Of a stretch of 32,000 nucleotides of DNA, positions 1 through 22,400 are shown one piece after another; position 1 is the stretch's first letter; each line of letters starts with the position of its first letter. Position numbers and translations under genes: made by a program. The notes beneath the pieces are model-generated. The model did no database searches, had not been told where the DNA came from, and saw only the letters and a program-made list of their open reading frames with translations. The stretch is taken from assembly GCF_001644705.1 (NCBI RefSeq), contig NZ_CP015137.1:1530001-1562000 (forward strand), in the 5' to 3' direction. The stretch comes from Dickeya solani IPO 2222 (GTDB taxonomy: Bacteria; Pseudomonadota; Gammaproteobacteria; Enterobacterales; Enterobacteriaceae).

Positions 1-507
1 GATGTCCATCGCCGTATAGGCGCGATAACATGCCGAGCTGTCCAGGCTTCTGGTGGTACACTGGGTCTGCAAAGCGCGGATATCGACCGGTAATGGTGTT
101 GCCGGAGTAGAAACTGACTCCCCGTCATCAGGCAACGCTGTTACTCGGGCCTGCCCCCGACAATGTGTGATTCTGCCGGCCCCTCCAACAGCAGAATCCT
201 CGCTGTAGATCTCAAAACTGATGTGGTCGTTATCTTCAGGACACAGATCGATAGACACGGTCAATCCCGCCGCCTGAACGCTCATCGGTCTCACCCAACT
301 GATATTTTTCAGCATTATCTGGCTGGCATGACCTGCAGCATCAGTGATTGCGGCTCTGGCTAATTCCAGATAGGCAACCCCCGGCAGAACGTTCTGTCCT
401 TTAACAACATGGTCAGCCAGAAAAAATTCGTGCCCGGTAAAAAAACTGCGGTAACGCTGGGTAGCGAAATCTGACGTGTTTTGCTGCACAAGCGGGTGTA
501 TTTCTCG
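1..507 (-). other. DH domain, N-terminal part (cut by window edge)
   Basis: HPLVQQNTS...FFLADHVVKGQNVLPGVAYLE matches the HxxxGxxxxP dehydratase motif; catalytic His codon at 411..409. Confidence 0.8.
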
Positions 508-2469
508 CAGCATCCGATCTCCACGAGAGTCCGGGGGCGATATCGCCGCGGTATCTGCCTTACTCCAGTAATGTTCAAGGTGGAAAGGATACCGAGGCAG
601 AGAGCGTTTACTAAAACCAGACGTACCGAAGATCTGGGTCAGTGGGAAATCAACGCCTCTGACCCAGAGTTCCATCAGAAAACCTTTGTCATTCTCCCAG
701 TCCAGCGTTTTCAGCAACTCAGACAGCCGGTTATGGCGGGTAAATATATCAAGCGCCTTATTTTCATCTTGCTGTCCGGTTTTCAGGTAGTAAGACTTCT
801 GCCCATTGGCAGCAATAAACTGGGTCAGCTTATCCTGTAAATTGTCGATGCTGGTGTAACGGAAGACCGCCCGCTGATCAAACTTGTTTCTTGCCGTCAG
901 ATAGAAATATTCCAATGCTCCGGGGTGAATGTCATGGGATTGCTGCAAAAAGGCCAGAATAGATTCAGCATAGTGAATCCACTGCCATTCATGCATCGTT
1001 GACAGCGCCAGAAAATACACATCACCCTGCGGCTCATCACCGACGGCTTTTCTATGCGCGTGGAGATCGGCGGAGCGGGGATATTCCTCCAGCAGCAAAT
1101 GGGCGTTAACACCGCCGGCGCCGAAGTTATTAATCGCGGCCCTGCGGGGAATTTCTTTGCCGTTATCATCCAGCAGAGGCGGCCACTCTTCTGTCATGTT
1201 ATCGATATAAAAGCGTGAGCCTTCCAGGCTGATTTTGTCGCTACAGGCTGAAAAATCTTTGATTCCTGGCTTTTTCCGCGTTTTAAATGCATGCAGTACG
1301 CGAACCAGCGAAACCATCCCGGAAGCCGAATTGGCGTGACCCATATTAGGTTTGAGCGTACTGACTTTACACGGGCTGCGCGTTGACGGTTCCACACTCG
1401 CGTTTAACTGAGCATCGGCACGCTTGAACCCTTTAATTTCTTCAGCATCGGCCAGAAGCGATGAGGCGCCGTGAGCTTCCACATAGGTAACGGTGTCCGT
1501 ATCAATACCGGCCTGACGGTATGCATTAACAATCACGCTCGCCTGTGATTCCGCCGACGGCATCGTCAGGCTGCCATAGCCTCCGGTATGGTTCACATCA
1601 GAGCCTAAAATCACCCCATGAATGTTGTCCCGATCGGCAATAGCCTGCGATAGGCGCTTGAGCAAAACCGTCGCCGTAGCCTCCGCAGGCAAGAAACCTT
1701 TAGCATCGGCCTGAAAAGGAGAACAGACTGTTGCTCCCCCGAGAATGCCTAAAGACTCCTGCCCCAAATACGATCCGGCCAGAGCATCGCCAAATAACAG
1801 ATTGGCGGCGCCAACCAGTGCATAATCGGCTTCCCCGCGCAGTAACGCTTCTTTCGCCTGATGCAGAGCAACACTGGCACCGGAACAGGCGGTATCGATA
1901 TAGAAGCTTTTACCGTTGAAACGAAAAGCATGGGAGAGGTAATTCGGCAGAGACCAGGACATCATGCCCAATATGGAATAACTCGTAAGCTCAGCTTTGG
2001 CGAGAAAAGGCGTATAAGCAGCACCTTCCGAGGCAATATAAACATCGACTTTCGCCTCTCGTAACTGTTGAGGCAGATAACAAGCATCCTCCAGCGTATG
2101 CCATGCGGACATCAAAAGCAGGCGGGTTCTGGGGTCCATATATTCGGCTTCCATCGGACCTATATTGAACAGGTCAGGATCGAATCCGGCGATATCATTC
2201 AGAAATGCCCCATACCTGTTTTGCATCTCTGGCCCCGGAAAATGATTCTCCGGCACGAGAGAAAACAGAGACTCCTGTTGATCAAGTTTATGGCAAAAAT
2301 CTTCGATAGAATCAGCACCTGGGAAAAAACCTCCCACGCCGATAATGGCAACGGCTTCTTTTTTATGCACCGAAAAAAGATCATCAGGCCAGGAAAGGTT
2401 GCTACCTGCATCGCTCTGTATATCCGTTAATACCGTGGCATCTTTACTGTCGTTATTCTGCTTCGTCAC
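1..2469 (-). CDS. trans-AT polyketide synthase, N-terminal part (KS - flanking linker - DH...); 3' end runs off the window
   Basis: Absent from the ORF track (no stop in window). Hand translation of the minus strand from GTG 2469..2467 to position 1 gives 823 codons without a stop. GGAGG lies 7 nt upstream, and an in-frame TAA at 2535..2533 limits the N-terminus. Motifs: AVAIIGVGG, IDTACSGAS, YVEAHGASS, LKPNMGHANSASG, FGAGGVNAHLLLEEY, LPRYPFHLEHYW, then HPLVQQN...FFLADHVVKGQNVLPG. Confidence 0.9.
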   Translation of the reverse strand, partial: MTKQNNDSKDATVLTDIQSDAGSNLSWPDDLFSVHKKEAVAIIGVGGFFPGADSIEDFCHKLDQQESLFSLVPENHFPGPEMQNRYGAFLNDIAGFDPDLFNIGPMEAEYMDPRTRLLLMSAWHTLEDACYLPQQLREAKVDVYIASEGAAYTPFLAKAELTSYSILGMMSWSLPNYLSHAFRFNGKSFYIDTACSGASVALHQAKEALLRGEADYALVGAANLLFGDALAGSYLGQESLGILGGATVCSPFQADAKGFLPAEATATVLLKRLSQAIADRDNIHGVILGSDVNHTGGYGSLTMPSAESQASVIVNAYRQAGIDTDTVTYVEAHGASSLLADAEEIKGFKRADAQLNASVEPSTRSPCKVSTLKPNMGHANSASGMVSLVRVLHAFKTRKKPGIKDFSACSDKISLEGSRFYIDNMTEEWPPLLDDNGKEIPRRAAINNFGAGGVNAHLLLEEYPRSADLHAHRKAVGDEPQGDVYFLALSTMHEWQWIHYAESILAFLQQSHDIHPGALEYFYLTARNKFDQRAVFRYTSIDNLQDKLTQFIAANGQKSYYLKTGQQDENKALDIFTRHNRLSELLKTLDWENDKGFLMELWVRGVDFPLTQIFGTSGFSKRSLPRYPFHLEHYWSKADTAAISPPDSRGDRMLREIHPLVQQNTSDFATQRYRSFFTGHEFFLADHVVKGQNVLPGVAYLELARAAITDAAGHASQIMLKNISWVRPMSVQAAGLTVSIDLCPEDNDHISFEIYSEDSAVGGAGRITHCRGQARVTALPDDGESVSTPATPLPVDIRALQTQCTTRSLDSSACYRAYTAMDI
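1084..2361 (-). other. KS domain (Cys/His/His present; HGTGT motif reads HGASS)
   Basis: Cys codon 1887..1885 in DTACSGAS. EAHGASS replaces EAHGTGT. NMGH is present, and the domain ends FGAGGVNAHLLLEEY. Confidence 0.9.
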
Positions 2470-2476
2470 GTTAAAG

Positions 2477-2481
2477 CCTCC
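2477..2481 (-). promoter_or_regulatory. Shine-Dalgarno (GGAGG) for the PKS starting at 2469
   Basis: The minus strand reads AATTGGAGGCTTTAACGTG, with 7-nt spacing to the GTG. Confidence 0.6.
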
Positions 2482-2508
2482 AATTGCCTTACCTGCCACC
2501 GTTCCCCG

Positions 2509-2545
2509 GTCGCCGCACGCCCACTTTTGCGTTTAGTGCGGCGAC
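2509..2545. repeat. GC-rich inverted repeat (10-bp stem, 17-nt loop) in the 128-nt intergenic gap
   Basis: gtcgccgcac (2509-2518) is the exact reverse complement of gtgcggcgac (2536-2545). No U/T tract follows on either strand. Confidence 0.6.
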
Positions 2546-2597
2546 GGGAAATCAAAAGAGGGCGGTGCATTCCTTTTTTCTTCAGACGAACTGCTTA

Positions 2598-2960
2598 CTA
2601 ACTCGCTGACAGTTGTAACTTGTCCCGCTTAAATACCTTGACGGTACCGGTCTGGGAATCCCTGACCGCCACCAGACTGCCGAAGTTAAACTTCTTCAAT
2701 ACAAAATGATCGATCAGTTCCGCTTCAGAAAGCTCTTCTCCCAGGCGGTATTCTTTTTTATCGAAATCCTGCCATGATTCATCGGCCCGATACCGAAACC
2801 AAAGAGGCTTGAGCCGGTTATATTGCACGTTACCGCCCGCCAGAAATTCCTGGAGCGTATCTGCCGATGCCTGATCATCATTCAGAATGTAGTACGCTTT
2901 GTCCGTCGGACAAATAATCATATTGAACAGGCCGGAATTTATCAGATATTCCTTCATCAT
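2598..2960 (-). CDS. 120-aa protein of unknown family; candidate accessory subunit of the adjacent cupin enzyme (OocQ-like by position)
   Basis: ORF-track ORF. ATG 2960..2958 overlaps the upstream TGA 2959..2957 (ATGA); a second ATG follows directly. AAGGGAG lies just upstream. I can recognise no catalytic motif in MMKEYLINSGLFNMIICPTDKAYYILNDD... Confidence 0.7.
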   Translation of the reverse strand: MMKEYLINSGLFNMIICPTDKAYYILNDDQASADTLQEFLAGGNVQYNRLKPLWFRYRADESWQDFDKKEYRLGEELSEAELIDHFVLKKFNFGSLVAVRDSQTGTVKVFKRDKLQLSAS

Positions 2961-4123
2961 TTATCTCCCTTACTCAGGACGTCACTGGTGGTGGTGTAGG
3001 CAGAAAAATAATTCTCATCTCCGATAGTTTTGGATTTTTTACCTAAACTGTTGAAAATATCGAATTTGAATTTGATAAAAGACGGATCTGAATTCAGGAT
3101 ATTGTCATATACCGGCATAAGTGTTGGAACATCTTTTCCTTTCGTCATCGTATCCAGATTCACTTCCGTCATCCGCATATTAGCCATGATCTGCAATGGC
3201 GTAGTATTGATAACAGCGTGAGGCCAGTATTTCGTGAAAAAGAGGACATCGCCCGGTTCCAGATCGACATAGAATTTCGGCGCATAGGCATAAAGCGGGT
3301 TATGAATTTTATGGAAGTTAATATCGAGGCGAGCATCCATCTTGGCTGACATACCGTTTGCACCATCAAGAAACGGGCGCAAAATATATCCCAAACGGGG
3401 ATCGACAAAGTACCAGCGTTTTACTCCGCTGATCATCAGCGCGCAGGAAATATCATTACCCTGATGCCAGTTAGTTCCCCAGGTGCGAAGATTACCGACA
3501 AATAGCTGGCTGAAACTATTCGCTGAGTGGCCATGAAAAAGATCGAGAATTTTTCCGGCGCCGACTTCATCGATCAAATCAGGATAGTCATTAAAAATTT
3601 CCGCAGAGTTATTAATGTAGTAACTCACCTTGGAATCTTTATCCAATTGAGAACGGAGTATTTTTTCCAGCTTGAGTTTTTTCAAACTGTTTCCCTTCTC
3701 ATCATAGCCGACCGCAATAATCTCCGTATCTTTATAGTGCTCAATTAGATAATCATGGGTCCATTCCTGAACGGCCTTCGTGTCATTAAGAAAACCTTTG
3801 GCAATGATCGGCGGGTTGCTGGCGTCATTGATCATCTTCTGAAAAGTCGTCCGATCCATATCTGAAAAATCGTAGGATTTCATTTTGATGAAAGTGTCGG
3901 CACAGTCCGTCGCGGCTAAATCAGGATACGCCGCTTGCAGATCCGCTAATTTTTTCTCAAATAAATCACGTTCGAAACTCTCCATGAAATCGGGAGATTT
4001 CAACACCAGTCGCATATGCATCATAAAGTGGAAATTTGCCTGTTCTTCCTGATCCAGAAAGAAAGAGGGCATCATTTCAAACACTTTCCGCTGTGTTTCG
4101 CTTTGAATATCATATTTTTCCAT
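2957..4123 (-). CDS. JmjC/cupin-fold Fe(II)/2-oxoglutarate-dependent enzyme with H-x-G...H metal site (predicted halogenase; OocP-like by context)
   Basis: The longest ORF starts at TTG 4168 (403 codons, overlaps the ACP gene by 20 nt, no SD). The first ATG is 4123..4121 (Met16 of the track protein), preceded by AAGGGA about 8 nt upstream, so I prefer the 388-aa model. Core: GTNWHQGND (His235 codon 3466..3464, Gly237 3460..3458), ISGVKRWYFVDP, GDVLFFTKYWPHAVINT (His317 3220..3218). Residues are numbered on the 403-aa track ORF. Confidence 0.85.
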   Translation of the reverse strand: MEKYDIQSETQRKVFEMMPSFFLDQEEQANFHFMMHMRLVLKSPDFMESFERDLFEKKLADLQAAYPDLAATDCADTFIKMKSYDFSDMDRTTFQKMINDASNPPIIAKGFLNDTKAVQEWTHDYLIEHYKDTEIIAVGYDEKGNSLKKLKLEKILRSQLDKDSKVSYYINNSAEIFNDYPDLIDEVGAGKILDLFHGHSANSFSQLFVGNLRTWGTNWHQGNDISCALMISGVKRWYFVDPRLGYILRPFLDGANGMSAKMDARLDINFHKIHNPLYAYAPKFYVDLEPGDVLFFTKYWPHAVINTTPLQIMANMRMTEVNLDTMTKGKDVPTLMPVYDNILNSDPSFIKFKFDIFNSLGKKSKTIGDENYFSAYTTTSDVLSKGDK

Positions 4124-4148
4124 AAATATATTCCCTTGGGGTTCAGGC

Positions 4149-4418
4149 TCAGAGAAGAACCATTTCAAGGCGATTGAAATGATGTTTTTTCAAATATTCA
4201 CTCAATCCCTGAAGCGAATTGACTTCCAGAAACACAACTGGAGTCAGCTTGATAGAGAAAAACTTGTTCAGATCCGCGCAATATTGATTAACCTCCATCG
4301 ACTCAAATCCATATTCATCAATGTCGCTTTCCCACTCTATATCCGCTGGTTCACATTTCAGTATTTTTGCTGCTAGCGCAACAAGATAACCTGACAAAGC
4401 TTCGTCTAACTCACCCAT
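4149..4418 (-). CDS. free-standing acyl carrier protein (PKS-type, 89 aa)
   Basis: ATG 4418..4416 is preceded by GAGGTG (4428..4423). The sequence IDEYGFESMEVNQYCADLNKFF...LTPVVFLEVNSLQGLSEYL has the PP-binding helix II pattern, with Ser40 (codon 4301..4299) in GFES instead of G(F/L)DS. Confidence 0.85.
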   Translation of the reverse strand: MGELDEALSGYLVALAAKILKCEPADIEWESDIDEYGFESMEVNQYCADLNKFFSIKLTPVVFLEVNSLQGLSEYLKKHHFNRLEMVLL

Positions 4419-4481: not shown

Positions 4482-7400
4482 CTATTCCGCTCCTGTCAAT
4501 ACCGAACTATTTTCATCAGCTGCCTTGATATCGTCGAAACCTTCGTGCCAGCAAAAGACCTTCTGCAATGGATTGACCGGTAGATGGAGTTTTTGTATCA
4601 ATTCACCCCGTCCTTCAGCCAGGCGCAACGGCGTCCAATCCACAGCATGACCCGCCAGCCAATCCATCACAGCGTGCCGAATGTCATCACTGAAATGGGA
4701 CAGCCCCCCCGCGATACCCGGCGACACGTGACGGCTGTCATAAATGTCAGTTTGATTACCCGCACGGGATCGCCAGCGCTGCAAACACTCCTGCAACTGC
4801 GCAATACTTGCCGCGCTGACAGCCAACCGTACGGTCCGATGTTCCCTGCCCTGTTGCAGGGTATATTCGAGTTGCTCCAGATAGACCGATTCAGTCGTAG
4901 GTTGCTTTTCTGCCGCCGGCGCCCCCGTAATAAACTTGCCCGCGGCAATATCTGCCTGAACGCGCGGCAAAAAATCCAGGTAATCACTCACCAGCATGGT
5001 TAATCTGGCTTCATCCGCTTCAGAAAACAGGAAAATAAAAGACCGGTTTGTCTGCCTGGCGGAAGACTTGAATAACTCGGCTCGTCGATCAGCGTCATAT
5101 TCCTCAAGCAGCAGGTGTGCATTCACTCCCCCAATACTCATGGAGTGGATAGCGCCTCGCCGGGGTACATGGCCATGCTTCTCCCAGGCCCGATCTTCTC
5201 TGAGTAGCTCAAAGCCATCGGTCAGGGTGATCCCTTCGTTCAGTTCTCCCAGCCCCTCGATTTTTGCCAGACGACGGTGGTACATCGACAACACCATTTT
5301 CACCAATACCGGAAAAGTCGATGCCGTTTCGGCATGACCGGCCAGCGGCTTGAGAGAACCAATGGCAATCGAAGACGCGCGACTTTCTGCTGAGGTATTG
5401 TTCACCCGGTCAGGGCTCTCCTGTTCTTTGCTCTCCTGTTCTTTGCTCCCCTGTTCTTTGCTCTCCTGCAGATAGGGGCCATATACCGCCTGAATAGCAA
5501 CCAATTCAGAAGCATCCCCCAACTGGGAACCGTTGGCTTCCGGTTCGATATACGAGATGGTCGCTGGGTCAATGCCAGCCTCGGTGAAAGCGGCTACGAT
5601 GGCCGACTTCTGCCCTTCAATATTCGGGCTATACCACTTCAGAGGGGCTTTACCGCCATGACTGATGCCGACTCCTTTTACATTGGCATAGATGGCATCC
5701 CCTTGCGCCAACGCCTCCGCCTCTGCTTTCAGAATAATGGCTCCGACGACTTCACTTTTCACATAGCCATCAGAGTCATGGGCAAAGCTTTTCGTCACTG
5801 GATGAGAGCTATACAGGGCTTGATCATCCGTGCGGTTCTGCATGAAGGGAGAAAGCCCCAGTTCCACCGTGGCAACAATAGCCTGCTGGCAACGCCCTTC
5901 ATTAATGGCGCTCATGGCATGCCTAATCGCCACCAGAAAGCTGGCACATCCGGTTTCAACAATTTCACTCAGCCCGGATAGGTTCAGAATATTTGAGATG
6001 CGATTGGCATAAGCTGATATTTGTTCCGCCTGAAAACGCCACTGTGCCGCCTGTGCCGGATCCATCCTGGCAGGAATATCCTGATAGCCTGAATGACCAC
6101 GCGTCGCCACAAAGAGTCCGGTTCGTTTTTCACGGAACTGACTCAGGGTATATCCGGCATCCGTCACGGATTGCCAGATGACTTCGAGTAACTTTCGTAT
6201 CTGGGGATCCAGCTTTTGAGCTTCCTTGTGGGGGACTTTGAACAGCTTGTGATCGAAATACTCGACCCCGTCGAGATAACCGCCGATTCTACTGCTACCA
6301 CTATCTCGCTCATCCAGAGCCATCAGGTATCTGCGCTTGTCGCTTAAGGCAGAAAGCGTCGTGCGGCCCGCACTCAGGTTTTCCCAGAATCTGGAGATAT
6401 GCTCCGCCTGAGGGAAAATGCCTGCCATACCGATAATACTGACATTCTGCTTCTGCCCTTTTCCGGTTACCGCTATCTTCTCATCCGCCTGCTGCTTCTC
6501 ATCCACCCGCTTTTGGGTATCCGCTTGCTTTTTGGGATCCCATTGTTCTTCGGGCAAGGTTTGGCTGCCAAGCTTTGCCAACTGCTCGCCAAAATGACTG
6601 CGCAGGTATTGCTGAATTTCCCCTATGGTGCGGTATTCCATAAACAGCGAGCGAGACACATCCGGGAATTTTCCCCGGATTTTGTTTAACAGGTCGACGG
6701 ACACCACCGAATCCATCCCCAGCTCTTCCAGAGCACGATCCGGGCTAATGATCTCTTCGGATACTTTGAGTTGCCGGCTGATCAGCCGTATCAGATAAGT
6801 CTCCAGATTAAAGTGTGAGTTGACCCCCTCTGGTGCGATGTCTTCCGATAACGGCGAAGGTACATCAGCTGATTTTTCCGGCACCGGGTGAACGCCATTT
6901 TCATCGGATAAGCGTTCAGCGACACGGCTTTCCCCCTGACCTTCTGGAAGCCAGAACCGCTGACGCTCGAATGGATAGGTCGGCAAGCTGAGACGACGTG
7001 GGCGTTGCCCCCGGTACAGACCAGACCAGTCAAACGCCAGTCCCTGACACCACAGGTTCAGCAACCTGGCGTATTTCCCACGCTCAGCCCATTTTGCAAT
7101 GGCTTCACTCAACTCTTCATCCGCAGAAAACTGAGCCAGCAGGGCTTTATTACTGCCGCGTTGACCCCGGTATGTGTCATCGGGGTTCCCGGCGTCATGC
7201 AGAAAACCGTCAATCTTCGCTATCAGCTCATCGAATGACTTCACGATCCATCCCAGCCGCGCATCCATCGCATCACGCCCGACTTGCAGCGTATAGGCCA
7301 GATTAGTCAACGTCAGAGAAGCGTCTTGACGATGCTGTTCCAGATAGTGCCTGAGATTCTGGGCGACCTGCCGTAAACGCACATCGTCTTTGGCCGACAG

Positions 7401-10400
7401 CAAAATCACATAACGATCCTGCACTGCCTGTAAGGCCGGGCGGGTATCCCGATATTCCTCTATCACCACATGCGCATTGGCCCCACCAAAACCAAAAGAA
7501 CTGACACCGGCCCGCCGCGGCAATGCTTCTCCACGAGCGTTTTTCAACGCATGCCAGGGACGATTCTCACCAACGATATAAAAAGGCGTCCCCGTGAAAT
7601 CGATGTAGGGATTCGGTTCTTCACAATGCAGGCTCTTCACCAAGGTTTGATGCTTCATTTGCAGCAGAACTTTAATGACGCCAGCAATCCCTGCCGCCAT
7701 CTCCAGATGCCCGATATTGGTTTTCACCGATCCGATGCCGCACTCTGTGTTGGTATATTCCTCACCAGAATAATCGGCTTTCATGGTGTTAAATGCTGCT
7801 TTCAGGCTATTGATTTCAATCGGATCGCCGAGTTTCGTACCCGTACCGTGAGCCTCGATGTAACTGATACTCCTGGGATCAATGCCGGCATTCCGGTAAG
7901 CACTTTCCAGCAATGCAACCTGAGCCTTGGGATTCGGCGCCGTCAGAGAGCTGGCCCGACCGCCGTGATTCTGCGCACTGCCGCGGATCACTCCATAAAT
8001 GTGATCACCGTCAGCTTCTGCCGCCTGTAAGCGTTTCAGCAGCAACATCCCAACGCCTTCTCCCCGAACATAACCGTCAGCCTGGTTGGAGAAGGTTTTG
8101 CAACGACCGTCGGAGGCAAGCATGCCAGCTTTGCAGAAGCTGACAAACGTATCCGGCGTAACAAGCGTATTGATCCCACCGACAATCACCATATCGCAGC
8201 CTTCATGGCGCAAGGCCGATACCCCACGATGGATAGCAATCAAAGAGGATGAACACGCCGTTTCAATCGGCTCGCTCGGACCGTGGACATTGAGAAAATA
8301 ACTCATCCGGTTCGGCCCGACTGAAGGAACAATTCCCGTTGCGGTGAAGCCTTCTGCCGGCAGCTTCGCATCAACAATCAGGCCGGAATAACCGGTGTTC
8401 CCCGTTCCGATATAGATGCCCAGAGCGCTGCCGGACAGAGAACTGGCCGAATAACCCGCATCTTCAATGACTTTCCAGGCATGGGTCATCAACAAACGTT
8501 GTTGCGGATCCATTAATTCAGCTTCACGGGGGGATATGCCGAAAAACAGCGGATCGAACTCCGCCATATCCTGGATAAACCCTCCCCAGCGAATGCTGTC
8601 CTTGTTTTCAGCGCCATGCACATCTTGCAGGTAATCCCGCCAATTCCAGCGGATTGGCGGAACTTCACTGATACAGTCTTTCCCCTGAAGCAGATTTTCC
8701 CAGTAGGTCTCCAGATCCGGAGCCATCGGGAAGCTACCGCTCATTCCCACAATCGCAATCGCTTCCTGTTCATCACGCTTGCTGCCTGACGCTTGCGATG
8801 ATTGCCGCCCTGCCAGGTGTGAGTTATCCGCCGAATTCGCCGCCGGCACGCTGTTGCGCTCATTTCCCTTCACAGCCAGGACGTCATTCGCCGGTGATAT
8901 TTCATCTGTCGGTTTACAACCGCGCGTTGGCGATGGCGCCATCACTTTTTCTGCAAAGAGATGACTGAAGCGATCCTGATAGTTATCGGCCAGATAGTTG
9001 GTCAACCCGGCGACGGTCGGATATTCAAAAAACACGGTCGGGAGCAGATCCAACGTATATTGCCGGTTCAGCTTATTAGAAAAACCGGTCGTCAGAATTG
9101 AGTCAAAACCCAGCTCATTCAGCTCAATATCGATATCGATGTCTGCAACGTTCACTTGTAACAGCGTCGAGACTTCCTGCAACAGAAGCGACTGAATCGC
9201 CTCATGCAACGCCTGAATATCCAGTTCGGTATGACGGGCTCCGGTCTGTTCCTCGGCTGGCACAGGTTGCCAGAAGTCAGCCGCAGCCTGATCTGAATGC
9301 TCCGCCAGAGACGGATTGGCTGTCTCATGATGGGCGGACGTTTCATAGACGTCCTCTTTATGCGAAAAATCCGTAAATTTTGCAGCAAATACCGTCTGAT
9401 AGGTTTCCGTCAGATAGCGGCTTAATGCCGAAATGGTCGGATACTCAAAAAAGACGGTCGGCAACAGGTCAAGCTCGTACTGGCGATTCAACTTGTTGGC
9501 AAACCCAGTGGTCAGAATTGAGTCAAAGCCCAGCTCGGTCAATTCAAGCTCCAAATCGATCTCAGCCCTGTCCACATCAAGTAACGCGGATACATCACGG
9601 ATCAAAAGTTGCTGAACCGCGCCTTCCAGACCCTGTAAATCAATCCGTGTTGTTGACATATGACCAGCCCCTGGTGCCTGACCTGCCAATACCGGATCTT
9701 CGCTGCGCTTTTCATCTACTTTTACTGGCTGAAATGCCGTTATTGATGGACGTGTCGTTATTGATGGAATCGCCGTTATTGATGGAAGCGCGCTGAGCGT
9801 CTGGCGCAATTTTTCAAGGTCGCCGGCAATCACCAGCACTTGGTTTTCTTCCCGCGCAATCGCCCGATAGAAAGCCTGAAGACCGGCATCCGTCGGCATC
9901 GCTATCATGCCGGTGCTTTGGTACATCATGGTCTCGAATGCGTCATCCACTTTCATCCCGCCCTCTTTCCAGAGCGGCCAATTGATCGCAAGGGTTCTTC
10001 CCATTCGCGACTGAGCAACCACCCGTTGCTGACGATAGTGAGCATAGGCATCCATGAAACTATTAGCGGTAACATAATCAGCCTGTCCCGGATTACCTAA
10101 GCCAGCCGCCGTTGAAGAAAACAGAATAAAGAAATCCAGCGGATGCTGTGCTAAAGCCAGATCCAGATTCACTACCCCCTGAACTTTGGGGGCCAGCACC
10201 GCCTGAAAGTCCGCTGCAGACTTTTTCAGAATGTAGCTGTCACGCAGTACGCCGGCACAATGCAGAACACCGTTGATCGTTCCGTACTGAGCGGTCACGG
10301 TAGCGATCAGCGCCTCAACACCCGGCCGATCACAAACATCAAGCATTCGGTAATCGACCTGTGCTCCCAGCGCCTCCAACTGGCTGATCGACGTCTGAAT

Positions 10401-13400
10401 TCGGGGGGTCATAGCGGAGCGCCCGGTTAAAATCAACCTTGTATTTCGGGTCTGACGGGCGATTTCCGTGGCGAAAATAAGCCCCAGCCCACCGGCTCCG
10501 CCAGTAATGAGATAAACGCCCTGCTCCTTCCACGGCATGCGAGTGAGCCCGGACAGCGCTGATCCGTTGGGAACAGCCGCCCCGCCATTCATAGCGCACA
10601 CTTCCTGCCAGGACAGAACCTGACGCCCTTCCCGGTCATAGCGAATGTGAATATCTTCCGGCATCAGGCTACTTTCCCGCAGCTTCTCACCCACATCATC
10701 GGCACTGACCGCCACATCCAGCTCAATCAGTTGACCGATAAAGTTGGGGTTCTCTAAACGTGCGGTTTTTAACAATCCATTGAGAGCGGTTGATAGCCGG
10801 GTCGGGAAATCTCCGGCAACCACCAGTTGCAGTAACATCGCCTGTTTGGGCTTTCTGGCTAAAATCGTTTGCACCTGTGCAAACAGTGCCAACGCACTCT
10901 GATGAAAGTTCAGCGCGATATCGTCCGTGTCCTGCACCGGCAAAACGACGTCATCCGTCAGGCCAATATCTTTTGCGACAGAACGATCTCCGCAAAATAA
11001 GATTTGGCGACTCGCGTATGCATGCGGAACAGCGGTATTGACCCGCGCATTTTTGCGCAGCCACTGCGGCACAAGCAGTAAAGTACCGTTTCTCTGAGTC
11101 GTGACCTGCTCGGGCGTGCGGGCGCTAAAGCCATGCAGAGCAACGCAAAGCTGCCCCGCGTCGTCATATAACTTGACGGTAAGTTTCTGTACCTTTGCCT
11201 GAGGATTGGGCTCGGTTCCGTGGTCATAGGTCACACAAGCCCACATCGTAGAAGTGCATCGATGAAGAATATCCATCGACTCCATATCAAAAGGTAAACC
11301 CAGCCGATGCTCTCGGGACAACCCCAGCGTCGCCTGCAATGCCGAATCCATCATGCTGGGATGTAATACATAATCACCGAGCGTTTCACTGAGTGTTTCA
11401 GGCAAAGTTAACCGCGCCAGAACACGCCCCTTCGCCAGATACAGATTCTCAACGCCCTGATGCCCAGGGCCGTAGACGATCCCAAGCTTACGAAAAGCCT
11501 GGTAACACTCAGGCTTCTCAATGGTTCCTTCCTGATGTTCAGCCAGAGCAACAGACAGATCGAGTCTTTCCCTGTCATCTGGATGCCGGTCGATGACGAG
11601 CACTTTACCCTGACAATGAGTCTGCGTTTGACCATCCGGCATCAGAGAACAGATTTCAAACCGAATCACCTTAGCCGACTGCGGCAACAGTTTCACGGTT
11701 AGCGGGTAGGTTCCGGCTGCGGTTGCAGAGGCGTCCCGGTGTTCGGCAATGAATGGGCGAACCCACACAATCTGCGTCAATTGCAAATGAAATCCAGCGC
11801 CAACAACCTGCTCAACCGCGGCCCGAGCCATTTCCAGATAGGCCACGCCAGGTAACAGTTTTTGTCCCATCACCAGATGGTCAGCCAGGAAAAATTCGCG
11901 ACCATCAAACCAGGAGGTAAAACAGAGCGCGGTAATATCAGAAGTATTGCGATGCACCAGAGGATGCAAACGATATGGACTTATTTTTACAGGGGATTCC
12001 GTCTTTCCTTGTCCATCGCTCCCACTTTCTGACGTCTTCACCTTCAGCCAGAAACGATCCCGTGCAAACGGATAGGTCGGCAAACCGATTCGGCGGGGCT
12101 TTACTGCCGTCGGGTACAGTGGCTTCCAGTCAACCTGACCGCCCTTCACCCAAACATCGAGCAGTTTGTTGTAGTTGCCTGTTTGCAGCCATGTTCCGAC
12201 CATCGTTTGCCACGTATCTTCATCCGCCAGCATCGACAGCGATTCTTTACCGGCTTTAACATTCCCGCGATAAACCCCTTCTGGTATTTCTGCATCAGAG
12301 AGATAAGCGGCCAATGTTTGTTTCAATGTCTGCACGGAACGGGTTACAAAGGCCAGACGTTCATCCATCGCTTCACGCCCCACTTGCAGGGTATAGGCGA
12401 TTTCAGTCAGGCTGGGCTGCTGGGCAGCACACTCGGCAGAATCCAGAAAGGCCGCCAGGCCTTGCACCACCGCGTCTAAACGCCCGGTCTTTTTGGCCGA
12501 CAACACAATTGCCACCGGCACGGCAGAAGAAGACGAAGCCTCCACGACTTCGGCTGTCGGCGCATACTCCTCAAGAACAATATGCGCATTAGCCCCACCG
12601 ATACCGAAGCTACTGACACCGGCCCTTCTCGGCATTGGCTGACCGGCAGCATCTTCTATTGCAGGCCACGCTTGTGTCTCCTGGACCAGATAGAACGGGC
12701 TATCGGCTAAATCCAGATAAGGGTTTGCCGTCTTAAGATGCACATTGCCCGGAATTTTCCGGTGGCGGAACATCAGCAAAATTTTCAGGACACCGGAAAT
12801 GCCGGCGGCCGCTTCCAGATGCCCGATATTAGTTTTCACCGACCCTAATCCACAATACGCCTTTCGGGTCATCGCTTTATTCTGTTCCCGGTACAGGGTT
12901 TCAAACGCCTTCTTCAACCCATTGATTTCAATCGGGTCTCCCAGTTTAGTTCCCGTACCGTGGGTTTCGATATAGCCCACCATCTCTGGATCAATGCCGC
13001 TACGGCGATAGGCCTGAACCAGCAGTTCTTGCTGCGCAACCGGATTCGGCGCCGTCGGAGAGGTGGCTTTGCCGCCATGATTCTCGGCACTACCACGGAT
13101 CAGACCGTGAATGCGATCGCCATCGGCTTTCGCCTGAGTGAGGGGTTTGAGCATAATGACGCCGACACCTTCACCACGACCATAGCCATCGGCACTGATA
13201 TCAAACGTTTTACAACGACCGTCTTCACTAAGAATACCGGCCTCCCCGGCGGTAATGGTGATCCCCGGATTGACGATAACGTTGACACCACCGACAATCG
13301 CCACGTCACAACTACCGGAGCGAATCGCCTCTATCGCCCGGTGGATGGCGACCAGTGAACTGGAGCATGCGGTATCGATAGGCTCGCTGGGGCCGTGCAG

Positions 13401-16400
13401 ATTCAATATATAAGAAACACGGTTTGCCAGCGCAAAATGAGAAAGCCAGGGTGGATCGCCGATACCGAATTTATCGTGGGAATACTTCAGCCAGGCGTCT
13501 TTATACTCAGAGGTTGACACCCCGACAAAAACCCCGGTATTGCTGCCCGATAAATCACTGGCGCAATAGCCGGCATCCTCAATCGTGGCCCAGACAGTTT
13601 CCAGAAAAACCCTGAATTGCGGATCCAGCGATTGGGCTTCACGGGGAGAGATCCCGAAAAACAGCGGGTCGAAACAGTCGACATCCTGCATGAATCCCCC
13701 ATAATTCACTTTGGTTTTTCCGGGGGTTTCATGTGGATCGCCATAATATTCCTGCCAGTTCCAGCGATCTGCCGGAACCTGGCCGATCAAATCAGAATTC
13801 GCTTCCAGCTGTTGCCAGAACTCATCCAGATTGCGGGACTGAGGAAATCGGCCACTCATACCGATAATCGCTATCGCTTCTGGTGCTTGTGATATTTTTG
13901 GTGTTAATGGCGTGCCCACCTCCGGCGCAGTCGCTTTTGAAATGCCTGAAGCGGCCACGTCAGCAACGGCGGCTTCTGATGGCGTAACCTCTGGTGTTGG
14001 CTGTGACTGGATTTGCGGTGCAGCCCGCCAGGCAAATGCTTTTCTTCCTTCCTCAGTATTCGCGGTTCTGGTGACCATAATCTGAGGTTGCCCGCTAGCC
14101 GCTCCCTTTGCTGAGATAGCCCCAGCGCTGACAGATGTCGCAGCAGCGTTATCAGCAAAAGCCTCGGGGTAAGTGTTAGCCAGATAGTTCCCCATCGCCC
14201 TCAGGGTCGAATGCTCAAAGAAAACCGTCGGCATCAGTGCTAATCCATAGGTTTTATTGAGACGACTGGCGAACTCGGTGAAATCGATAGAATTGAAGCC
14301 ATATTTAGACAGCTCCATATCCAGCTCTATCTTTTTTTCATCAAGCTTTTGCAGTTGCGCGACCATACTGACAAGCAATGCACAAACCTGCCCGACCCGA
14401 ACCGTGCCGTTGACCTCTGTTGTCAAACCTGCCGCATCTTTTATATCCGATTGATGCACGGGCGCCGGATGGGTGGACGTTGGCCCCTCAGAGAGTCTGG
14501 CCTGAATTTTTTCTGCCTCACCATAGATGACGGCAAGCTGAGATTCCTGACTTTGCAGCCCCAGAATCAATGCCCGAATTCCCGCATCAGTGGGCATCGG
14601 AATCAAACCGGTCTGCTGTCTGAGCAGTTCAGCATCGGGTGCGGAAATACCCATACCGCCATCACGCCATAGCGGCCAGTTTAACGCCAGGGTTTTTCCC
14701 CGGCGCAGACCATTGGCGACCTGCTGGTTACGCCAGAGGGCAAATCCATCCATAAATCCATTGGCGCAGGCATAATCGGCCTGGCCGGCATTACCAAACG
14801 CACTGCTCAATGAAGAAAACAACACCATAAAATCCAGGTTGCAATCCTGGGTCGCGTTGTCCAGAGCCAAGGTTCCTGCCACTTTCGGCGCCAGAACGTC
14901 GAGCAGTTCCGCTTCAGTTTTATTGGCAATGAAAGCATCACGGATGACGCCTGCACTATGGATGATGCCATTCAGTTGACCTTCATCTTGCAGAATCTGC
15001 TGTACCAGATTGCGGGTTTGCGCCGGATCGGCCACATCCCCCTGCAGGTAAGTCACCTGAATCCCCTGATGCCGCAAATCCAAAAGGCGTTGCTCACTGC
15101 GTTCATTCAGGGCAGAGCGACCGCTGAGTACCAACCGAGCCTGATATTGAGTCCCCAGTTCACGGGCAATCTGATAACCAATCCCCCCCAAACCGCCGGT
15201 TATCCAGATGACACTGCCAGAAGAAACCGGCAGTTCATCAGTCATGTCTGCCAGAGTGCTCCGGCGCCACGCCTTCACCCTCCGGTTTCCGGTTTCATCG
15301 TAACGAATCTCTGTGGCGTCATTTGCGCCATGCATTTCAGACTGTAACTGTGTTAGCAGCGGTGGGATGGCTTCCGGTGAAGCGTGGTATCGGATCACTT
15401 TGCCATTGAAGCCGGATTGTTCTTGCCGGGCTGTTTTGAACAGTCCCGAACTGGCTGATAACCACGATTCATTAACCGGTTCTGATGCCAGTATAAATAC
15501 GGCTTGCCGCTGAGATTGCTCCCGGCAAGCAAGCGTCCTTTCTTTTATTTGGGCAAATAACTGTTGCAGGCAATACGTAAATTGTTGCGGTTCGTGGTCG
15601 TGACCCACAGGCAGGTTCACCACCTGGCAATCGGGCCAGCTATTTTGCAACGCGGTTTGCAGCGCCGCGTTCTCATCGGCCAGAATAAAACAAGGCGGCA
15701 GTGCATCGGGATCACCGTCATGCACCTGAGCAGACCCACTATGCTGGATGACCCACTGAGGCCGGGCAAAAACCAGCGACTCGGCTTGCGAAACCTGAGC
15801 ACTTATCATGCTCAGTCCTTTTATCTCAACCAAAATATGCCCGTGATGATCGGTAAACCAGATATCACAACGCACGACCCGATGTTCTGAACCCGCATCA
15901 GACTGCGTTTGGCGAATATAAGCCAAGACGCTTGCTGGTAACGGCTGGTAGATCCTCAGCGTATCCATGCTAAACGGCATCAGCGGATGAGTACCTTGCC
16001 GCTCACCGCCGACGGCCAGCATAATGCCGGCCAAAACGGCCCCATTCATCAGTGCCGGATGCAACACCGGCTCCTCACCCACACCGACAATATCCTGGTG
16101 AACTTCCAGCGTCACCAGCGCTTCATTATTCCCCTGCTGATACCGGGTAATCCCAAGCAATCTGGGCCCGATGGCGGTGCCGAAAAATTCAGCACAGGCA
16201 TGATGGGAGCGACGCTGCCGGCAGCGATGCTCGATTTCTGTAAGCGGCAAAGGCTGACGTTCTGTTCCACCGACAAGCCCAGTCATCACGCGCCCCTGCG
16301 CATGAACCTGTCCCTGTCTACTGATAACACAGTGATAGCCTTGTGCGTCTCGATTCAGGGCCAGATCGATATCCGTACCCTGTTCTCCCACCATCACGGG

Positions 16401-19400
16401 CTGGTGCCAGATAACCTCCTTGAGACCCACGACGACTTCGGAATCCCCTGTTGAAACGTGTGATACAGCCAGTTCTCTCATCCATTCCAGAGACAGCATT
16501 CCGGGAAGCAACCCACCGTGATCCTGCAAAAAATACTCTGTGCCGCTTAACGCTTTGCCCTTTATGCTAACGGTCATCTCTGCGCTGACCGTCGTATCTA
16601 CAGACGTCACCGTTCCCGGGGAAACAGATTGCTCAGAGGTGTGAGATACCGGCAAAACCCGCGTCGAGAAGCCACGCATACTCACACAGATACGACCATG
16701 ATCATCGCAGAGGTCGATATCCATTTTCCGTACTTGCTCGTTTGCCGAGTTTTCTGTTGATACCAGCCGTAGCCAGACCCAAAGACGAGCATCAACCTCT
16801 GCGAATACATCCAATTGCTCCAGAGCAAAAGGAACATAGGCGGCGCCAGACGGTAGGTCTGAGTGATTCAGCCCCAGACTGGTTTGCAAGGCCGCATCCA
16901 TCAGGCTCGGATGCAGGCCGAACGCGGAGGATGTCACCGTATCCGGCACAGCAATCCGAGCCAGTACCTGACGCTCTCCGGTCAGTAGCTGTTCAATGCC
17001 CTGAAATGTCTCGCCATAACTCAGCCCCATATCGCGAAACTTCTGATAACAGTGCGCCGCCTCATATTCAGGGCCAGTCATCTGTTTCTTCAGTTGGTGC
17101 AGATCCAGCGTGTTCCTTTCTAAGGCGTTATTTCCCGTGATGGCGTCATTCGGACGGGGATCAATGATTCCCTGACCATGAATCGTGCGCTGCTGAATGT
17201 CGCTTTCCGAATAAATCTGGTAGTCAATGAGACCGCTTTCCTGTTCGTAGAGACCCAGATAGATTGTGGTTGTCTGTTGCGTTGCGATCACCGGCTGAAG
17301 CCAGAGTACCTGCTTCAAACTGAAATGCAGCAGTTGCGATTTGGAAAAGAGGGGAGAGGCAGCATAGGTATAAGCCGCCCGAGCCATTTCCAGATAGCTG
17401 ACGCCCGGCAGCACCTTCTGACCATGAATCTGGTGATCCGCGAGGAAAAACTCCTCGCCGCTGAACTCAGAGCGAAAGCGAAGTTCAGCCAGCGTTGAAG
17501 CATTTTCCTTCAACAGCGGATGTAATAGCCCCGGTCTGGCCGCGACAATAGGGCCTGGCGATGAAGATAACGCGCGGGTCTCTAGCCAGTGATGCTCTCT
17601 GGCAAAGGGGTAAGTCGGTAAGACGACACATCTGGATACGTCCGGAAACAGCGCCGCGCCGTCCAGTTCGTATCCTTGACAATAATAGTCTGCCAGTGCG
17701 GACAGGATTTCCTGATATTCCTGCCCCTCACTATGTTGTGGCTGGCGTAATAGTTGTGGCTGGCCTGATAAAACGTCGACCTGCTGGCGAATGATCTTTT
17801 GTCCGGCGAAGCCCAACGGTACTTTACCGCGAAACAGATTGGGACGTTGCGCATGCTCTGCCTGCTGCAAACTGATGATGACGCTTTCCCGATCTTCAAC
17901 CACCACGGCCAGACGGTATTGAAAATGACTCCGCCCCCGCAGCAATGTATAACCGATCGCTGCCAGTCCCTGACCGCTGGTTTGCGGTTTTTGCAAATGC
18001 AAAATCAGATCGTCGACCTTACGGTATAACGCCTCCTCGGTCTTGGCCGACAAACAGAGAAGATAATGGCTGCGCTTTGGCTCTGGGGACGAAACCGGCT
18101 GAGGGTATTCCTGCATGATAAGATGAGCGTTGGTTCCGCTCATGCCGAAAGCACTCACGGCCCCCATTCTCTGCTTACCCTGCTGTACCGGCCAGGCCCT
18201 GGCCGTTTTATTCACATAAAAAGGACTCTCTGCCCAGGTAATGTAGTCATTTTCCTGCTGACAGTGCAGACTTGCGGGAATGACTTGCTGATTCATCGAC
18301 TGAAGCAGACTCACGGCGCTAAGGAGCCCCGAAGCGGCAAACGTATGGCCGAAATTCGTTTTTGTCGACGTCAGGGCGCAAAAAGCCTGTTTATCGGTGT
18401 ACGCTTTAAACGCATCATTCAACGCATTAATCTCGACCGGGTCGCCAAGCCGGGTACCCGTTCCGTGCGTCACGATATAGTCAATCTGCGCAGGATCGAT
18501 GTGAGCGCGTTTATACACGGTTTTGAGCAAGTCGGTCTGCGCCACACCGTTCGGCGCAGTGATCCCGTTAGTTTTGCCGTCATAATTGATACCGCTGGCC
18601 CGAATCAAACCGTGGATCGGATCACCATCGGCTTCGGCCTGCGACAAGCGTTTTAGCACCAGCACCACCACCGCTTCGCCAGGCACCATGCCGTTAGCAC
18701 GCCGATCAAAGGTGTAGCAGATCCCATCCTCAGAAGTCATGCCTGAACGCTTCATGATATCGAAGCCTTCCGTCGAGAGTTGCAAACTCACGCCGGCTGC
18801 CAGCGCGGTGTCGCATTCTCGGTTACGCAGACTGGCGCATGCCAGATGCGCAGCGACTAAACCGGATGAGCAGGCCGTATTGATCGCCAGCACCGGTCCG
18901 TGCAGATCGAGAAAATAGGCCAGCCGTGAAGCCAGAATGCCATTGTGATTGGCAGTAATTTCAACGTGTTCAGCACCAGAGAAACGTCCGTATGTTCCCT
19001 CTTCCACACCGACAAAAGTGCCGATGTTATGCTGCCGCAACTGTTGCGCGCCGTAACCGGCATGTTCCAGCGCTTTCCATGCTTCCTGTAAGAGCTGGCG
19101 CTGGCCGGGATCCATGTTTTGAGCTTCTCGGGGCGAGATTTCAAAAAACAGCGGGTCAAATTCAGCCGCACCGGGTATGACACCACACCACAAGCCCTGT
19201 TCTGCCGAAGAACCACGATCATCTAACGTAGCACTACCATCACGGTAAGACTCGTCCCGACTACGCAGGTATTCTGCACTCACGCGGCTTACAGACGATT
19301 TTCCCTCTGCCAGATACTGCCACATTTCATCAACATCACGGGCATCGGGAAAACGGCCGCTCATACCGATAATCGCGATCGGCTCTTCTGCTTCGAAAGG

Positions 19401-22400
19401 AGAGTTCTTAGCATCGTGGAGGCCGTCTTCCCCGATAGTCGGCCTATTCACAGGCCGGATGTCAGGGTGGGCGTTTGAATGTACCGATTCGACACGGTGA
19501 CCAGACGCCTCGCTATCCCCGGCCGATCCGCCGTAATACATCTGCATCAACGCGCCGTGTGTCAGCATAAAGTACTGACAGAGTTGCGAAAGGGTTGCAT
19601 TGCCGAAAAACAGGGCTGGTGAAACCGCAACGTTCCAGTTCCGGCTGAGGCAGGAGGCAAACTCAGCAAGGCTTATCGAGTCAAAACCGAAATCGGCCAG
19701 ATTTACGTCATGATGCAAACGGTGCCGTTCAATACTTAAAATATCGCTTATCGCCTGCTGCAATTCCCACAGTACACACTGCTCAACCGTCAGCCCCTTC
19801 ATTTCCGGGCGACGGGCAGTGGTCGTCGCCGGCTGGCGTTGCGGCCGCTCCTGACGGTTGCCGGATTCATTCTGTAACCCATTCCCCAACAAGCGTTGAA
19901 TCTTATCGGGCTGTCCGACCATCACCAGCGACGAGCCGGCTTCACCGGCCAGCAACTGTTCGAACACCCTCAATCCTTCTTCACTTCGCAATGCACGTTG
20001 TCCGCTGGTTTTCAAATAAAGGGACGTTGCCTGCACTCGCTCAGCCGAGCTTTGCGTCATTCCCCCGTCCTGCCAGACAGGCCAACTGATTGCGATAGTC
20101 TTTCCTATCAGAGATTGAGTCTTTCCTTCGGGAGATTCCTGTCTATTGCGGTTGTTGGCATAGGCCATTTGAAAACGATTCGCCACGGCATAATCGCCGG
20201 CGCCGAAATCACCCAAAACCGCGGCACTGGAAGAGAAATAAACGATAAAGTCTAACGCTTCTTCAGCACCGAATACGGTTTGCCAGGCCTTATCAAGAAC
20301 CAGAGTCCCCTGAATTTTCGGCGCCAGTACCTGACGAACGCCGGTAAGATCTTTTTCTGCCAGTATCTGTGTCGTTTGAACGCCAGCGGTATGTAATATG
20401 CCGTTGATCTTAATCCCCTGACGCTGACAATCAGCGAACAGGGATTGCATCTGAGACAATTCACTCACATCCGCCTGCAGATAAGTAACCTGACCGCCGC
20501 GCTGTTCAATTGCCCGTAAATTCGCCTGTTTTTCCAGATCAAGGGGAGAGCGGCCAACCAGAAGAACTTTCGCCATAAAGTTCTCACACAGATAGCGTGC
20601 AAATACCGTCCCTAATCCCCCGAGCCCTCCGGTAATCAGATAACATCCGCCAATTTTTAAATAACTATCGGTTTTTAAAACATCATCGGGTTTTAAACCA
20701 TCACCAGTTTTTAAACCATCATCAGTTTTTAAACCGCTATTACCGTTTTCCATCCGGGTCGGTTCGAGGGTCAACACATGACGCTTGCCCTGGATATACA
20801 GCACGCTTTGAGCAAGTTCGGTCTGCAATTCAGCCCAGATTTCGGAAATATATCCGGCGATCGACAGCCATTGATCAGTATCGGTAGCTTCTGTAATGTC
20901 AAACCCGGCAAACGTGACTCGTGTTTCCGGTAGAACAAAACGTAAGGATGCGCCGAAAGCCACCAACGCATCGGCATAACAACGCTCCAGACTGCTGGTA
21001 AACGCACTTACTACCAAAATACGGCCAACATCCAGTCCGCTGGACAACAGCCCCTGAAACAGGGGAACCAATTGATTCATCCCCGATTCAGGTTCAACAA
21101 AACACAGTAAAGCCTCTACCGTTCCCTGCCCGTTCTCCTTTTGAGAGACCGTCTTCAACTGAGAAAAATAGCGGTGATAGGTACTTGCCTCTGCTACCGA
21201 CAGATCGTCAGGCGCGAAAAATTCAGTCGATACATTCGCGGCCATTTGATTCATACCGAGACGCATCGTGGTTTGACCTGCAGCCGGGATGACGCAAAGC
21301 AAGCGCTGTATCCGGCGCTCAGCGCAACTCAGCACGTCAGGCAGCGATTGCTCTTGCCACCGCTCACGATAGACCAGAACAGCATCATCCTGCTCTGACG
21401 TCATTGCTTCATCAGGTTCAATCAGAACGTCCGATTCAATCAAAACATCCGATTCAATCAAAACATTAAGTAAGTCGGGCTCAGCCTTCTGGCTCTGCGG
21501 AGTCGGTGCGGATAGCGTTGCAACAGAGCTGGTCGTTGCGGGGCTGTTCGTTACAGGGCTATCCACCGTAGCAATCCAATAGCTTTCCTGTTCAAACGGA
21601 TAAGTCGGCAGGTGCATCCTGCGCGGTGTCGGTCCTTGATACAAAACACCCCAATCTGCCGGTTCGCCCCGCAGCCAAGATGCCAACTGTCTGGAAACAA
21701 GAGGAGAGATTCCGTCATGCCGGGCGTCGGGTACAGAATGTGATATTCCATCACCGGAAAGTAACGCTTCGGCGGCACGGGAACGGGCAGTTCCCGACAC
21801 ATCGGCATAATACAGACTGAGACCTGATCTCGCCCCTTCTTCAGCAGCAAGATACCGGCCCACTTTCTCCTGCAAGGTATGCCAGCCATCGGCAATCAAC
21901 GCCAGACGGTGAGGCATCGCCGTTCGTCCGAATTGTAGGGTATAAGCAAGATCCCGCATGCTTTGCGGCTCATTACCGGCGATCAGGTTTGCGGCTATCT
22001 GCTTTAACTGCGGTTCACTTTTTGCAGATAACACTATCAGGTACGAATCATCCTCACCTGGCGCCCCTGGGCATCGCTCTTCAGCCCCCGCGTTCTGTAA
22101 CACCAGATGAGCATTGGTTCCCGAATGTCCGAAAGAGCTGACTGCCGCAAAACGCTGCTCCTGCTCCCAGTTTTTGAGCGCGGTATTCACATAAAAAGGG
22201 CTATCGGCAAAATTAATATCTTCATTTGGCTGGACATAATTGAGCGACGGCGGGATTTCTCGATTTTTCAGCGCCAGCGCCGCCGTAATTAAATTCACAA
22301 TGCCGGAGGCGGCTTGAGTATGGCCAATATTGGTCTTCGGCGAGGTCAAGGCACAGTACTGCTTTTTATCTGCACCCGTGCTATGAAACGCATCAATTAA

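Follow-up and report, generated by a model that had tools for sequence, protein, structure and literature searches.

What does a protein with the fold of a JmjC-type hydroxylase, but with a glycine where such enzymes carry an iron-binding carboxylate, do at the junction between two polyketide synthase (PKS) genes? The question is raised by an open reading frame (ORF) on the minus strand of a 32,000-nucleotide (nt) stretch of the Dickeya solani IPO 2222 genome (contig NZ_CP015137.1, positions 1,530,001 to 1,562,000 of the forward strand), hereafter called the window and numbered from its first letter. An earlier note, made from the letters alone, had described this ORF (2957-4168) as a JmjC/cupin-fold Fe(II)/2-oxoglutarate (2OG) enzyme with a halogenase-type H-x-G...H iron site, and had named the OocP/OocQ pair of the oocydin pathway as its only known counterpart. 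By sequence, however, the ORF is more than a counterpart: it is the Dickeya copy of OocP itself, encoded next to OocQ, the small partner with which it is reported to chlorinate the antifungal polyketide oocydin. We therefore consider it highly probable that the window holds part of an oocydin (haterumalide-type) trans-acyltransferase (trans-AT) PKS cluster of a Dickeya-like enterobacterium, with an OocP-type Fe(II)/2OG halogenase that acts together with OocQ. The gene, its partner, their context, the structure and the in vivo role of OocP and OocQ have already been published, and nothing in the window is new in this respect.

Identity of the ORF and its partner

The identification rests on matches to both chains of one entry in the PDB. 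The protein in question aligns with 8A82_A (phmmer, E 1.5e-247, ~92% identity), residues 16-403 of the listed ORF corresponding to residues 1-388 of the chain, and the adjacent ORF at 2598..2960, which had been taken for a 120-amino-acid (aa) orphan, matches 8A82_B, named OocQ (E 2.9e-63). The entry, released in March 2023, is titled "Fe(II)/aKG-dependent halogenase OocPQ" (aKG, alpha-ketoglutarate) and holds the crystallised OocP-OocQ heterocomplex of the orthologous system from Serratia plymuthica 4Rx13; the structural paper on OocPQ is Fraley et al. 2023 (Structure 31:565). The Serratia system has the same H-x-G...H site, the same neighbours (OocO, OocR and the non-elongating ketosynthase, KS0, of OocN) and the same cluster type. 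Relative to the S. plymuthica protein, OocP of the window carries ~33 scattered substitutions, none of them at invariant positions. The two genes of the pair are as follows.

oocP, 2957..4123, minus strand: predicted Cupin_8/JmjC-fold Fe(II)/2-oxoglutarate halogenase, 388 aa (8A82_A match, Pfam, Foldseek, ribosome-binding site)
oocQ, 2598..2960, minus strand: auxiliary partner in the OocP heterocomplex, 120 aa (or 119 aa) (8A82_B match)

The coordinates of oocP given here differ at one end from those first claimed. The frame 2957..4168 is present on the minus strand, and the ORF, the peptides quoted from it and the codon coordinates all proved exact; what did not hold is the start at TTG 4168, from which the ORF listing counts 403 aa. 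Translation very probably begins at ATG 4123, which encodes Met16 of the listed ORF and gives a protein of 388 aa: an AAGGGA ribosome-binding site is found 8 nt 5' of this codon, and in the phmmer alignment the crystallised orthologue begins with MEKYDIQ. TTG 4168, 45 nt too far 5' by comparison with both, was dropped. With the ATG start, the overlap between oocP and oocO disappears and the earlier residue numbers turn out to be 15 too high, so that in OocP numbering, used from here on, the residues of interest are H220, G222, D224 and H302. At its other end, oocP shares an ATGA with oocQ, whose start overlaps the oocP stop (junction read directly), and this arrangement suggests that the two are translationally coupled.

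Family searches place OocP among the cupins but do not name it. The Pfam check for Cupin_8 and JmjC that had been proposed for the listed ORF returned Cupin_8 (E 3.3e-15; 57 bits, cut-off 27.4), with JmjC as a weak second match. At E <= 1, Pfam gave nothing for OocP beyond Cupin_8, JmjC and Cupin_2 save a chance match to Cas9_C_2, and no PhyH-type or PhyH-family match. NCBIfam holds no model that matches OocP, OocQ or OocO, and OocQ has no match in Pfam either. Automated annotation therefore cannot name the published OocPQ module, and its members go under cupin-like or hypothetical labels.

Fold and iron site

An AlphaFold model of OocP, built from 39 family sequences, reached a mean predicted local distance difference test score (pLDDT) of 77 and a predicted template modelling score (pTM) of 0.79. 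In Foldseek, this model matched 8a82_A first (template modelling score, TM, 0.84/0.91; E 1e-57), followed by JMJD7, JMJD5, FIH and TYW5 (E ~1e-13; TM up to 0.8 on the target). The top 50 matches consisted of OocP and JmjC proteins only, with no SyrB2-, WelO5- or BesD-type chain among them. A profile made from a 7-sequence OocP alignment and compared with the PDB gave no better JmjC alignment than the single sequence had, matching only JMJD7, and that partially. As judged from the model, the OocP scaffold is JmjC-like and not SyrB2-like, in line with what had been argued from the letters.

The comparison with JmjC-type hydroxylases (JMJD5, JMJD7, FIH and TYW5) brings out both the kinship and the departure. 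OocP has in common with them the double-stranded beta-helix, the first His, the distal His, the Lys for 2OG and the Cupin_8 assignment. At 14-20% identity, however, it differs from them in the Gly that replaces the carboxylate ligand, in an extra N-terminal helical region of ~100 aa, in an obligate small partner and in its substrate, which would be an ACP-bound polyketide (ACP, acyl carrier protein) rather than a protein or tRNA. OocP lacks the H-x-D/E...H facial triad and is thus a structural relative of the JmjC/FIH hydroxylases, not a member of their class.

The site itself recalls a different group of enzymes. SyrB2, CmaB, CurA-Hal, WelO5 and BesD have in common a two-His iron site of the form H-x-G/A...H with room for chloride, and several of them use a carrier-bound substrate. 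The radical chlorination chemistry of OocP is presumed, by analogy, to be like theirs. Unlike them, OocP lies on a different branch of the cupin superfamily, would act in-module on the chain backbone and needs OocQ. Neither Pfam at E <= 1 nor the Foldseek top 50 placed OocP on the PhyH-like/SyrB2 branch, a result obtained with no direct pairwise comparison to SyrB2.

The residues that make up the putative site are listed below, with the earlier numbers in brackets where these were given.

H220-Q221-G222 (earlier His235/Gly237), 3458..3466, minus strand: predicted proximal iron His, and Gly at the position of the hydroxylase Asp/Glu (codons verified; JMJD5 alignment)
Thr217, 3473..3475, minus strand: second predicted 2-oxoglutarate contact (at least 90% conserved in the 39-sequence alignment)
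Asp224 (earlier Asp239), 3452..3454, minus strand: candidate alternative carboxylate (Ala or Gly in 12/44 homologues)
Lys235, 3419..3421, minus strand: predicted contact of the 2-oxoglutarate C5 carboxylate (JMJD5 alignment; invariant in the 39-sequence alignment)
His302 (earlier His317), 3218..3220, minus strand: predicted distal iron ligand in a KYWPH motif (codon verified; invariant in the 39-sequence alignment)

Direct reading of the codons confirmed His235 at 3466..3464, Gly237 at 3460..3458, Asp239 at 3454..3452 and His317 at 3220..3218 (all in the earlier numbering). In human JMJD5, the His and Asp of H-Q-D are iron ligands, and a Lys further on binds 2OG. A HMMER alignment sets W-H-Q-G-N-D of OocP opposite L-H-Q-D-P-Q of that protein, so that Gly222 faces the ligand Asp, and it pairs the OocP Lys 15 residues past the first His with the JMJD5 Lys. 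The register of His, Gly for Asp, and Lys that the earlier note had proposed against the JmjC core is borne out by this alignment.

These positions are also the ones that the family keeps. A homologue search of 5.8 billion proteins yielded 44 homologues, each at least 50% identical to OocP; H-x-G-N and Asp224 were scored in these 44, and H302, K235 and T217 in the 39-sequence family alignment. H-x-G-N is found in 44/44 homologues, and the distal His in every full-length sequence. We propose that His220 and His302 are the sole protein ligands of the iron, and that Gly222 would leave a coordination site for chloride.

Chemistry proposed for OocPQ and its rivals

The role of the pair has been studied genetically in orthologues. 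Oocydin bioactivity disappears on in-frame deletion of oocP or oocO and all but disappears on that of oocQ (PMC4552970). OocP has been described as a trans-acting Fe(II)/aKG halogenase and OocQ as its auxiliary protein, the module being a heterodimer; a delta-oocQR strain no longer chlorinates the pathway intermediates, and does so again when given a plasmid with oocQ and a truncated oocR (PMC11260071). The depositors of 8A82 and the authors of the latter article, working on an orthologue ~92% identical to the window protein, thus agree with the halogenase-type site that the earlier note had read on a JmjC/cupin fold. A literature search beyond PMC4552970 and PMC11260071 found no other paper on the chemistry of OocPQ, the structural publication aside; PMC6174933 makes no mention of chlorination.

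A sequence of steps can be proposed for the locus, whose other genes are described below. The KS0 of OocN, which is without the decarboxylation His, would pass the chain unextended to the free ACP OocO, the presumed carrier of the halogenation substrate. The OocP-OocQ heterocomplex would then bind Fe(II) through His220 and His302, 2OG through Lys235 and Thr217, chloride at the gap left by Gly222, and O2. In the ACP-bound intermediate, the resulting Cl-Fe(IV)=O (chloro-ferryl) species would strip one backbone carbon of a hydrogen and supply chlorine in its place, a radical-rebound chlorination that we infer by analogy with SyrB2-type halogenases. OocR, which begins with ketosynthase (KS) and dehydratase (DH) domains, would extend the chlorinated chain, and subsequent processing would lead to the vinyl chloride of oocydin A.

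Several points weigh against a halogenase acting in this manner. Variants of FIH in which the ligand Asp is replaced (D201G/A) exist as structures and are among the Foldseek matches, and they are not known to be halogenases. We infer, rather than observe, which carbon is attacked, that OocO carries the substrate and what OocQ does beyond complex formation. The published rescue plasmid combined oocQ with a truncated oocR, with oocQ not isolated and oocP not directly probed (PMC11260071). Finally, two-His 2OG hydroxylases exist, AspH being an example (PMC13168262), so that a missing carboxylate alone is no proof of a halogenase.

The last of these points leads to the alternative that survives best, albeit as a very unlikely one, in which OocP would be an AspH-like two-His hydroxylase or a desaturase and the chlorine would come from another enzyme of the cluster, such as the flavin-dependent OocM or OocK. 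OocM in the window is a luciferase-like monooxygenase, but such monooxygenases are not a known class of halogenases. Matilla et al. did at first give halogenation to OocK or OocM, yet OocK and OocM mutants gave no dechloro-oocydin (PMC4552970). The delta-oocQR phenotype and its complementation, as well as the designation of OocP as the halogenase by the depositors and in PMC11260071, also speak against this alternative, and all 44 homologues have Gly where the carboxylate would be, as expected of a functional open site.

Less likely still, OocP would be a JmjC-type hydroxylase of the usual kind whose facial triad has shifted so that Asp224 of H-Q-G-N-D gives the carboxylate; this was the refutation route named in the earlier note, and we followed it through the variation in the family. 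Asp224 lies two residues past Gly222 and is kept in the enterobacterial and Lysobacterales copies. It is, however, replaced by Ala in 11/44 homologues and by Gly in 1/44, all of which retain H-x-G-N and the distal His, while G222 never varies; in the HMMER alignment, too, it is Gly222 and not Asp224 that stands against the ligand Asp of JMJD5. A residue that has to hold the metal would not have given way to Ala in a quarter of the homologues, and Asp224 is therefore probably not a ligand. The weakest alternative, a decayed oocP in this strain and a cluster product free of chlorine, is scarcely credible given an intact frame collinear with 8A82_A over all 388 residues and with every conserved residue kept, the intact oocO, oocQ, oocN and start of oocR with their ribosome-binding sites and coupled start and stop codons, and the expected antifungal activity of Dickeya strains carrying ooc clusters (PMC4552970).

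Identification of the ORF as OocP is consistent with all of the remaining evidence. Every OocP-type feature that can be tested in silico was found, namely orthology, the H-x-G...H site with its Lys, adjacency to OocQ, placement between PKS genes and the fold, and nothing in the window sequence speaks against it.

Gene neighbourhood and the wider ACP-OocP-OocQ family

Read along the minus strand, the genes run oocL'-oocM-oocN-oocO-oocP-oocQ-oocR', which puts the pair where the earlier note had placed it, at a PKS junction beside a free ACP, with a PP-binding domain in OocO and with oocN and oocR on the flanks.

oocR, 5' part, 1..2469, minus strand: begins at GTG 2469, preceded by a GGAGG ribosome-binding site; KS then DH, running off the window (Pfam KS and PKS_DH_N)
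oocO, 4149..4418, minus strand: free-standing ACP, 89 aa, Ser39 in a GFES motif (Pfam PP-binding, E 5.2e-13)
oocN, 4482..25208, minus strand: trans-AT PKS, 6908 aa, upstream of the halogenation cassette (ORF; KS, ACP and linker domains)
OocN C-terminal putative non-elongating KS (KS0), 5097..6443, minus strand: Cys kept at 5946..5948; His of HGTGT changed to Asn at 5532..5534
OocM-position luciferase-like monooxygenase, 25168..26301, minus strand: 377 aa (Bac_luciferase, E 3e-44)

The last 1500 aa of OocN read KS-ACP-KS (two KS stretches and an ACP in Pfam). The final KS retains the Cys in ETGCAS and the second His in AGHAE and has Asn in EANGSQ, a single His being missing; because this Asn replaces the HGTGT His, we take the domain to be a non-elongating KS0. 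The final OocN KS of the Serratia cluster has likewise been called non-elongating and proposed to hand the chain to OocO (PMC4552970). On the other side of the cassette, direct translation of the minus strand showed a reading frame that stays open between 2532 and 1. A first impression that no PKS gene lies downstream (1..2598) was dropped, as the ORF listing omits ORFs at the window edge and the direct translation shows the KS and DH of oocR.

Two further observations concern oocN. The 3' end of oocM runs 41 nt into oocN as listed from its TTG start; if oocN began at an in-frame ATG at 25175, the two would have only 8 nt in common. The linkers between OocN domains contain short tandem peptide repeats (DVLIES x3, GLKTDD-type x4, SKEQE x3 and PSIT(A/T) x3), and these low-complexity linkers may differ between strains.

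Among the genome loci found, that of Dickeya oryzae ZYY5 is closest (98% protein and ~91% DNA identity over 10 kb), whereas the locus of the oocydin producer Serratia marcescens MSU97 is 92% identical to that of the window in protein and ~78% in DNA; measured against the Serratia ooc loci, the host of the window is thus Dickeya-like. Roughly every second sequenced Dickeya strain is reported to carry an ooc cluster (PMC4552970).

The order PKS-ACP-OocP-OocQ-PKS is also kept in clusters whose OocP homologue is only 52-60% identical to OocP. These distant clusters come from Tahibacter harae (L004), two Lysobacterales metagenome-assembled genomes (MAGs; L005 and L006), an assembly of 43% G+C (GCA_021772675.1, with a Logan contig; L007/L008) and a 114-kb metagenome contig. 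OocQ homologues, 47-57% identical, directly follow the OocP homologues in the distant loci, and an ACP of 89-90 aa precedes the OocP homologue in other clusters. In the cluster of homologue P0008, a 9092-aa PKS lies upstream, and a 1102-aa protein, a trans-acting enoylreductase/acyltransferase (trans-ER/AT) pair and a 3504-aa PKS lie downstream. Within the family, one subclade (P0009-P0012, P0014, P0018, P0019, P0025, P0042 and P0044) reads H-L-G-N-A and P0040 reads H-A-G-N-G; the subclade without Asp224 has KFWPH in place of KYWPH at the distal His, a possible second-sphere difference.

The cassette stands apart from its flanks in base composition. In the window, oocO-oocP-oocQ (2598..4418) has a G+C content of 0.43, compared with 0.51-0.53 in the flanking PKS genes, and in all four hosts checked the cassette lies 8-14 points below the PKS genes around it. 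The other three hosts are as follows.

Serratia marcescens (L002, 6001-7164): cassette G+C 0.46, flanks 0.59-0.61
Lysobacteraceae MAG (L006, 5694-7515): cassette G+C 0.56, flanks 0.64-0.65
Low-GC assembly (L007, 9706-11556): cassette G+C 0.36, flanks 0.43

Either amino-acid composition or a foreign origin shared by the cassettes could account for this low G+C. Tentatively, ACP-OocP-OocQ, which lies between the PKS genes of uncharacterised Lysobacterales clusters and on many metagenome contigs at 50-66% identity, might be regarded as a portable, plug-in halogenation module. Some of the distant clusters may make chlorinated polyketides other than haterumalides, or may use the site differently.

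Halogenation of the backbone within a modular PKS is both rare and useful. The OocPQ module has already been employed in PKS engineering, where chlorine serves as a mass-spectrometric tag and as a synthetic handle (PMC11260071), and to this the window adds only a natural sequence variant of a known pair. The small value that the locus adds is comparative: H-x-G-N, the distal His and Lys235 are invariant, Asp224 is not required, the OocP-type enzyme always occurs together with OocQ and a free ACP, and related cassettes extend beyond the Enterobacterales.

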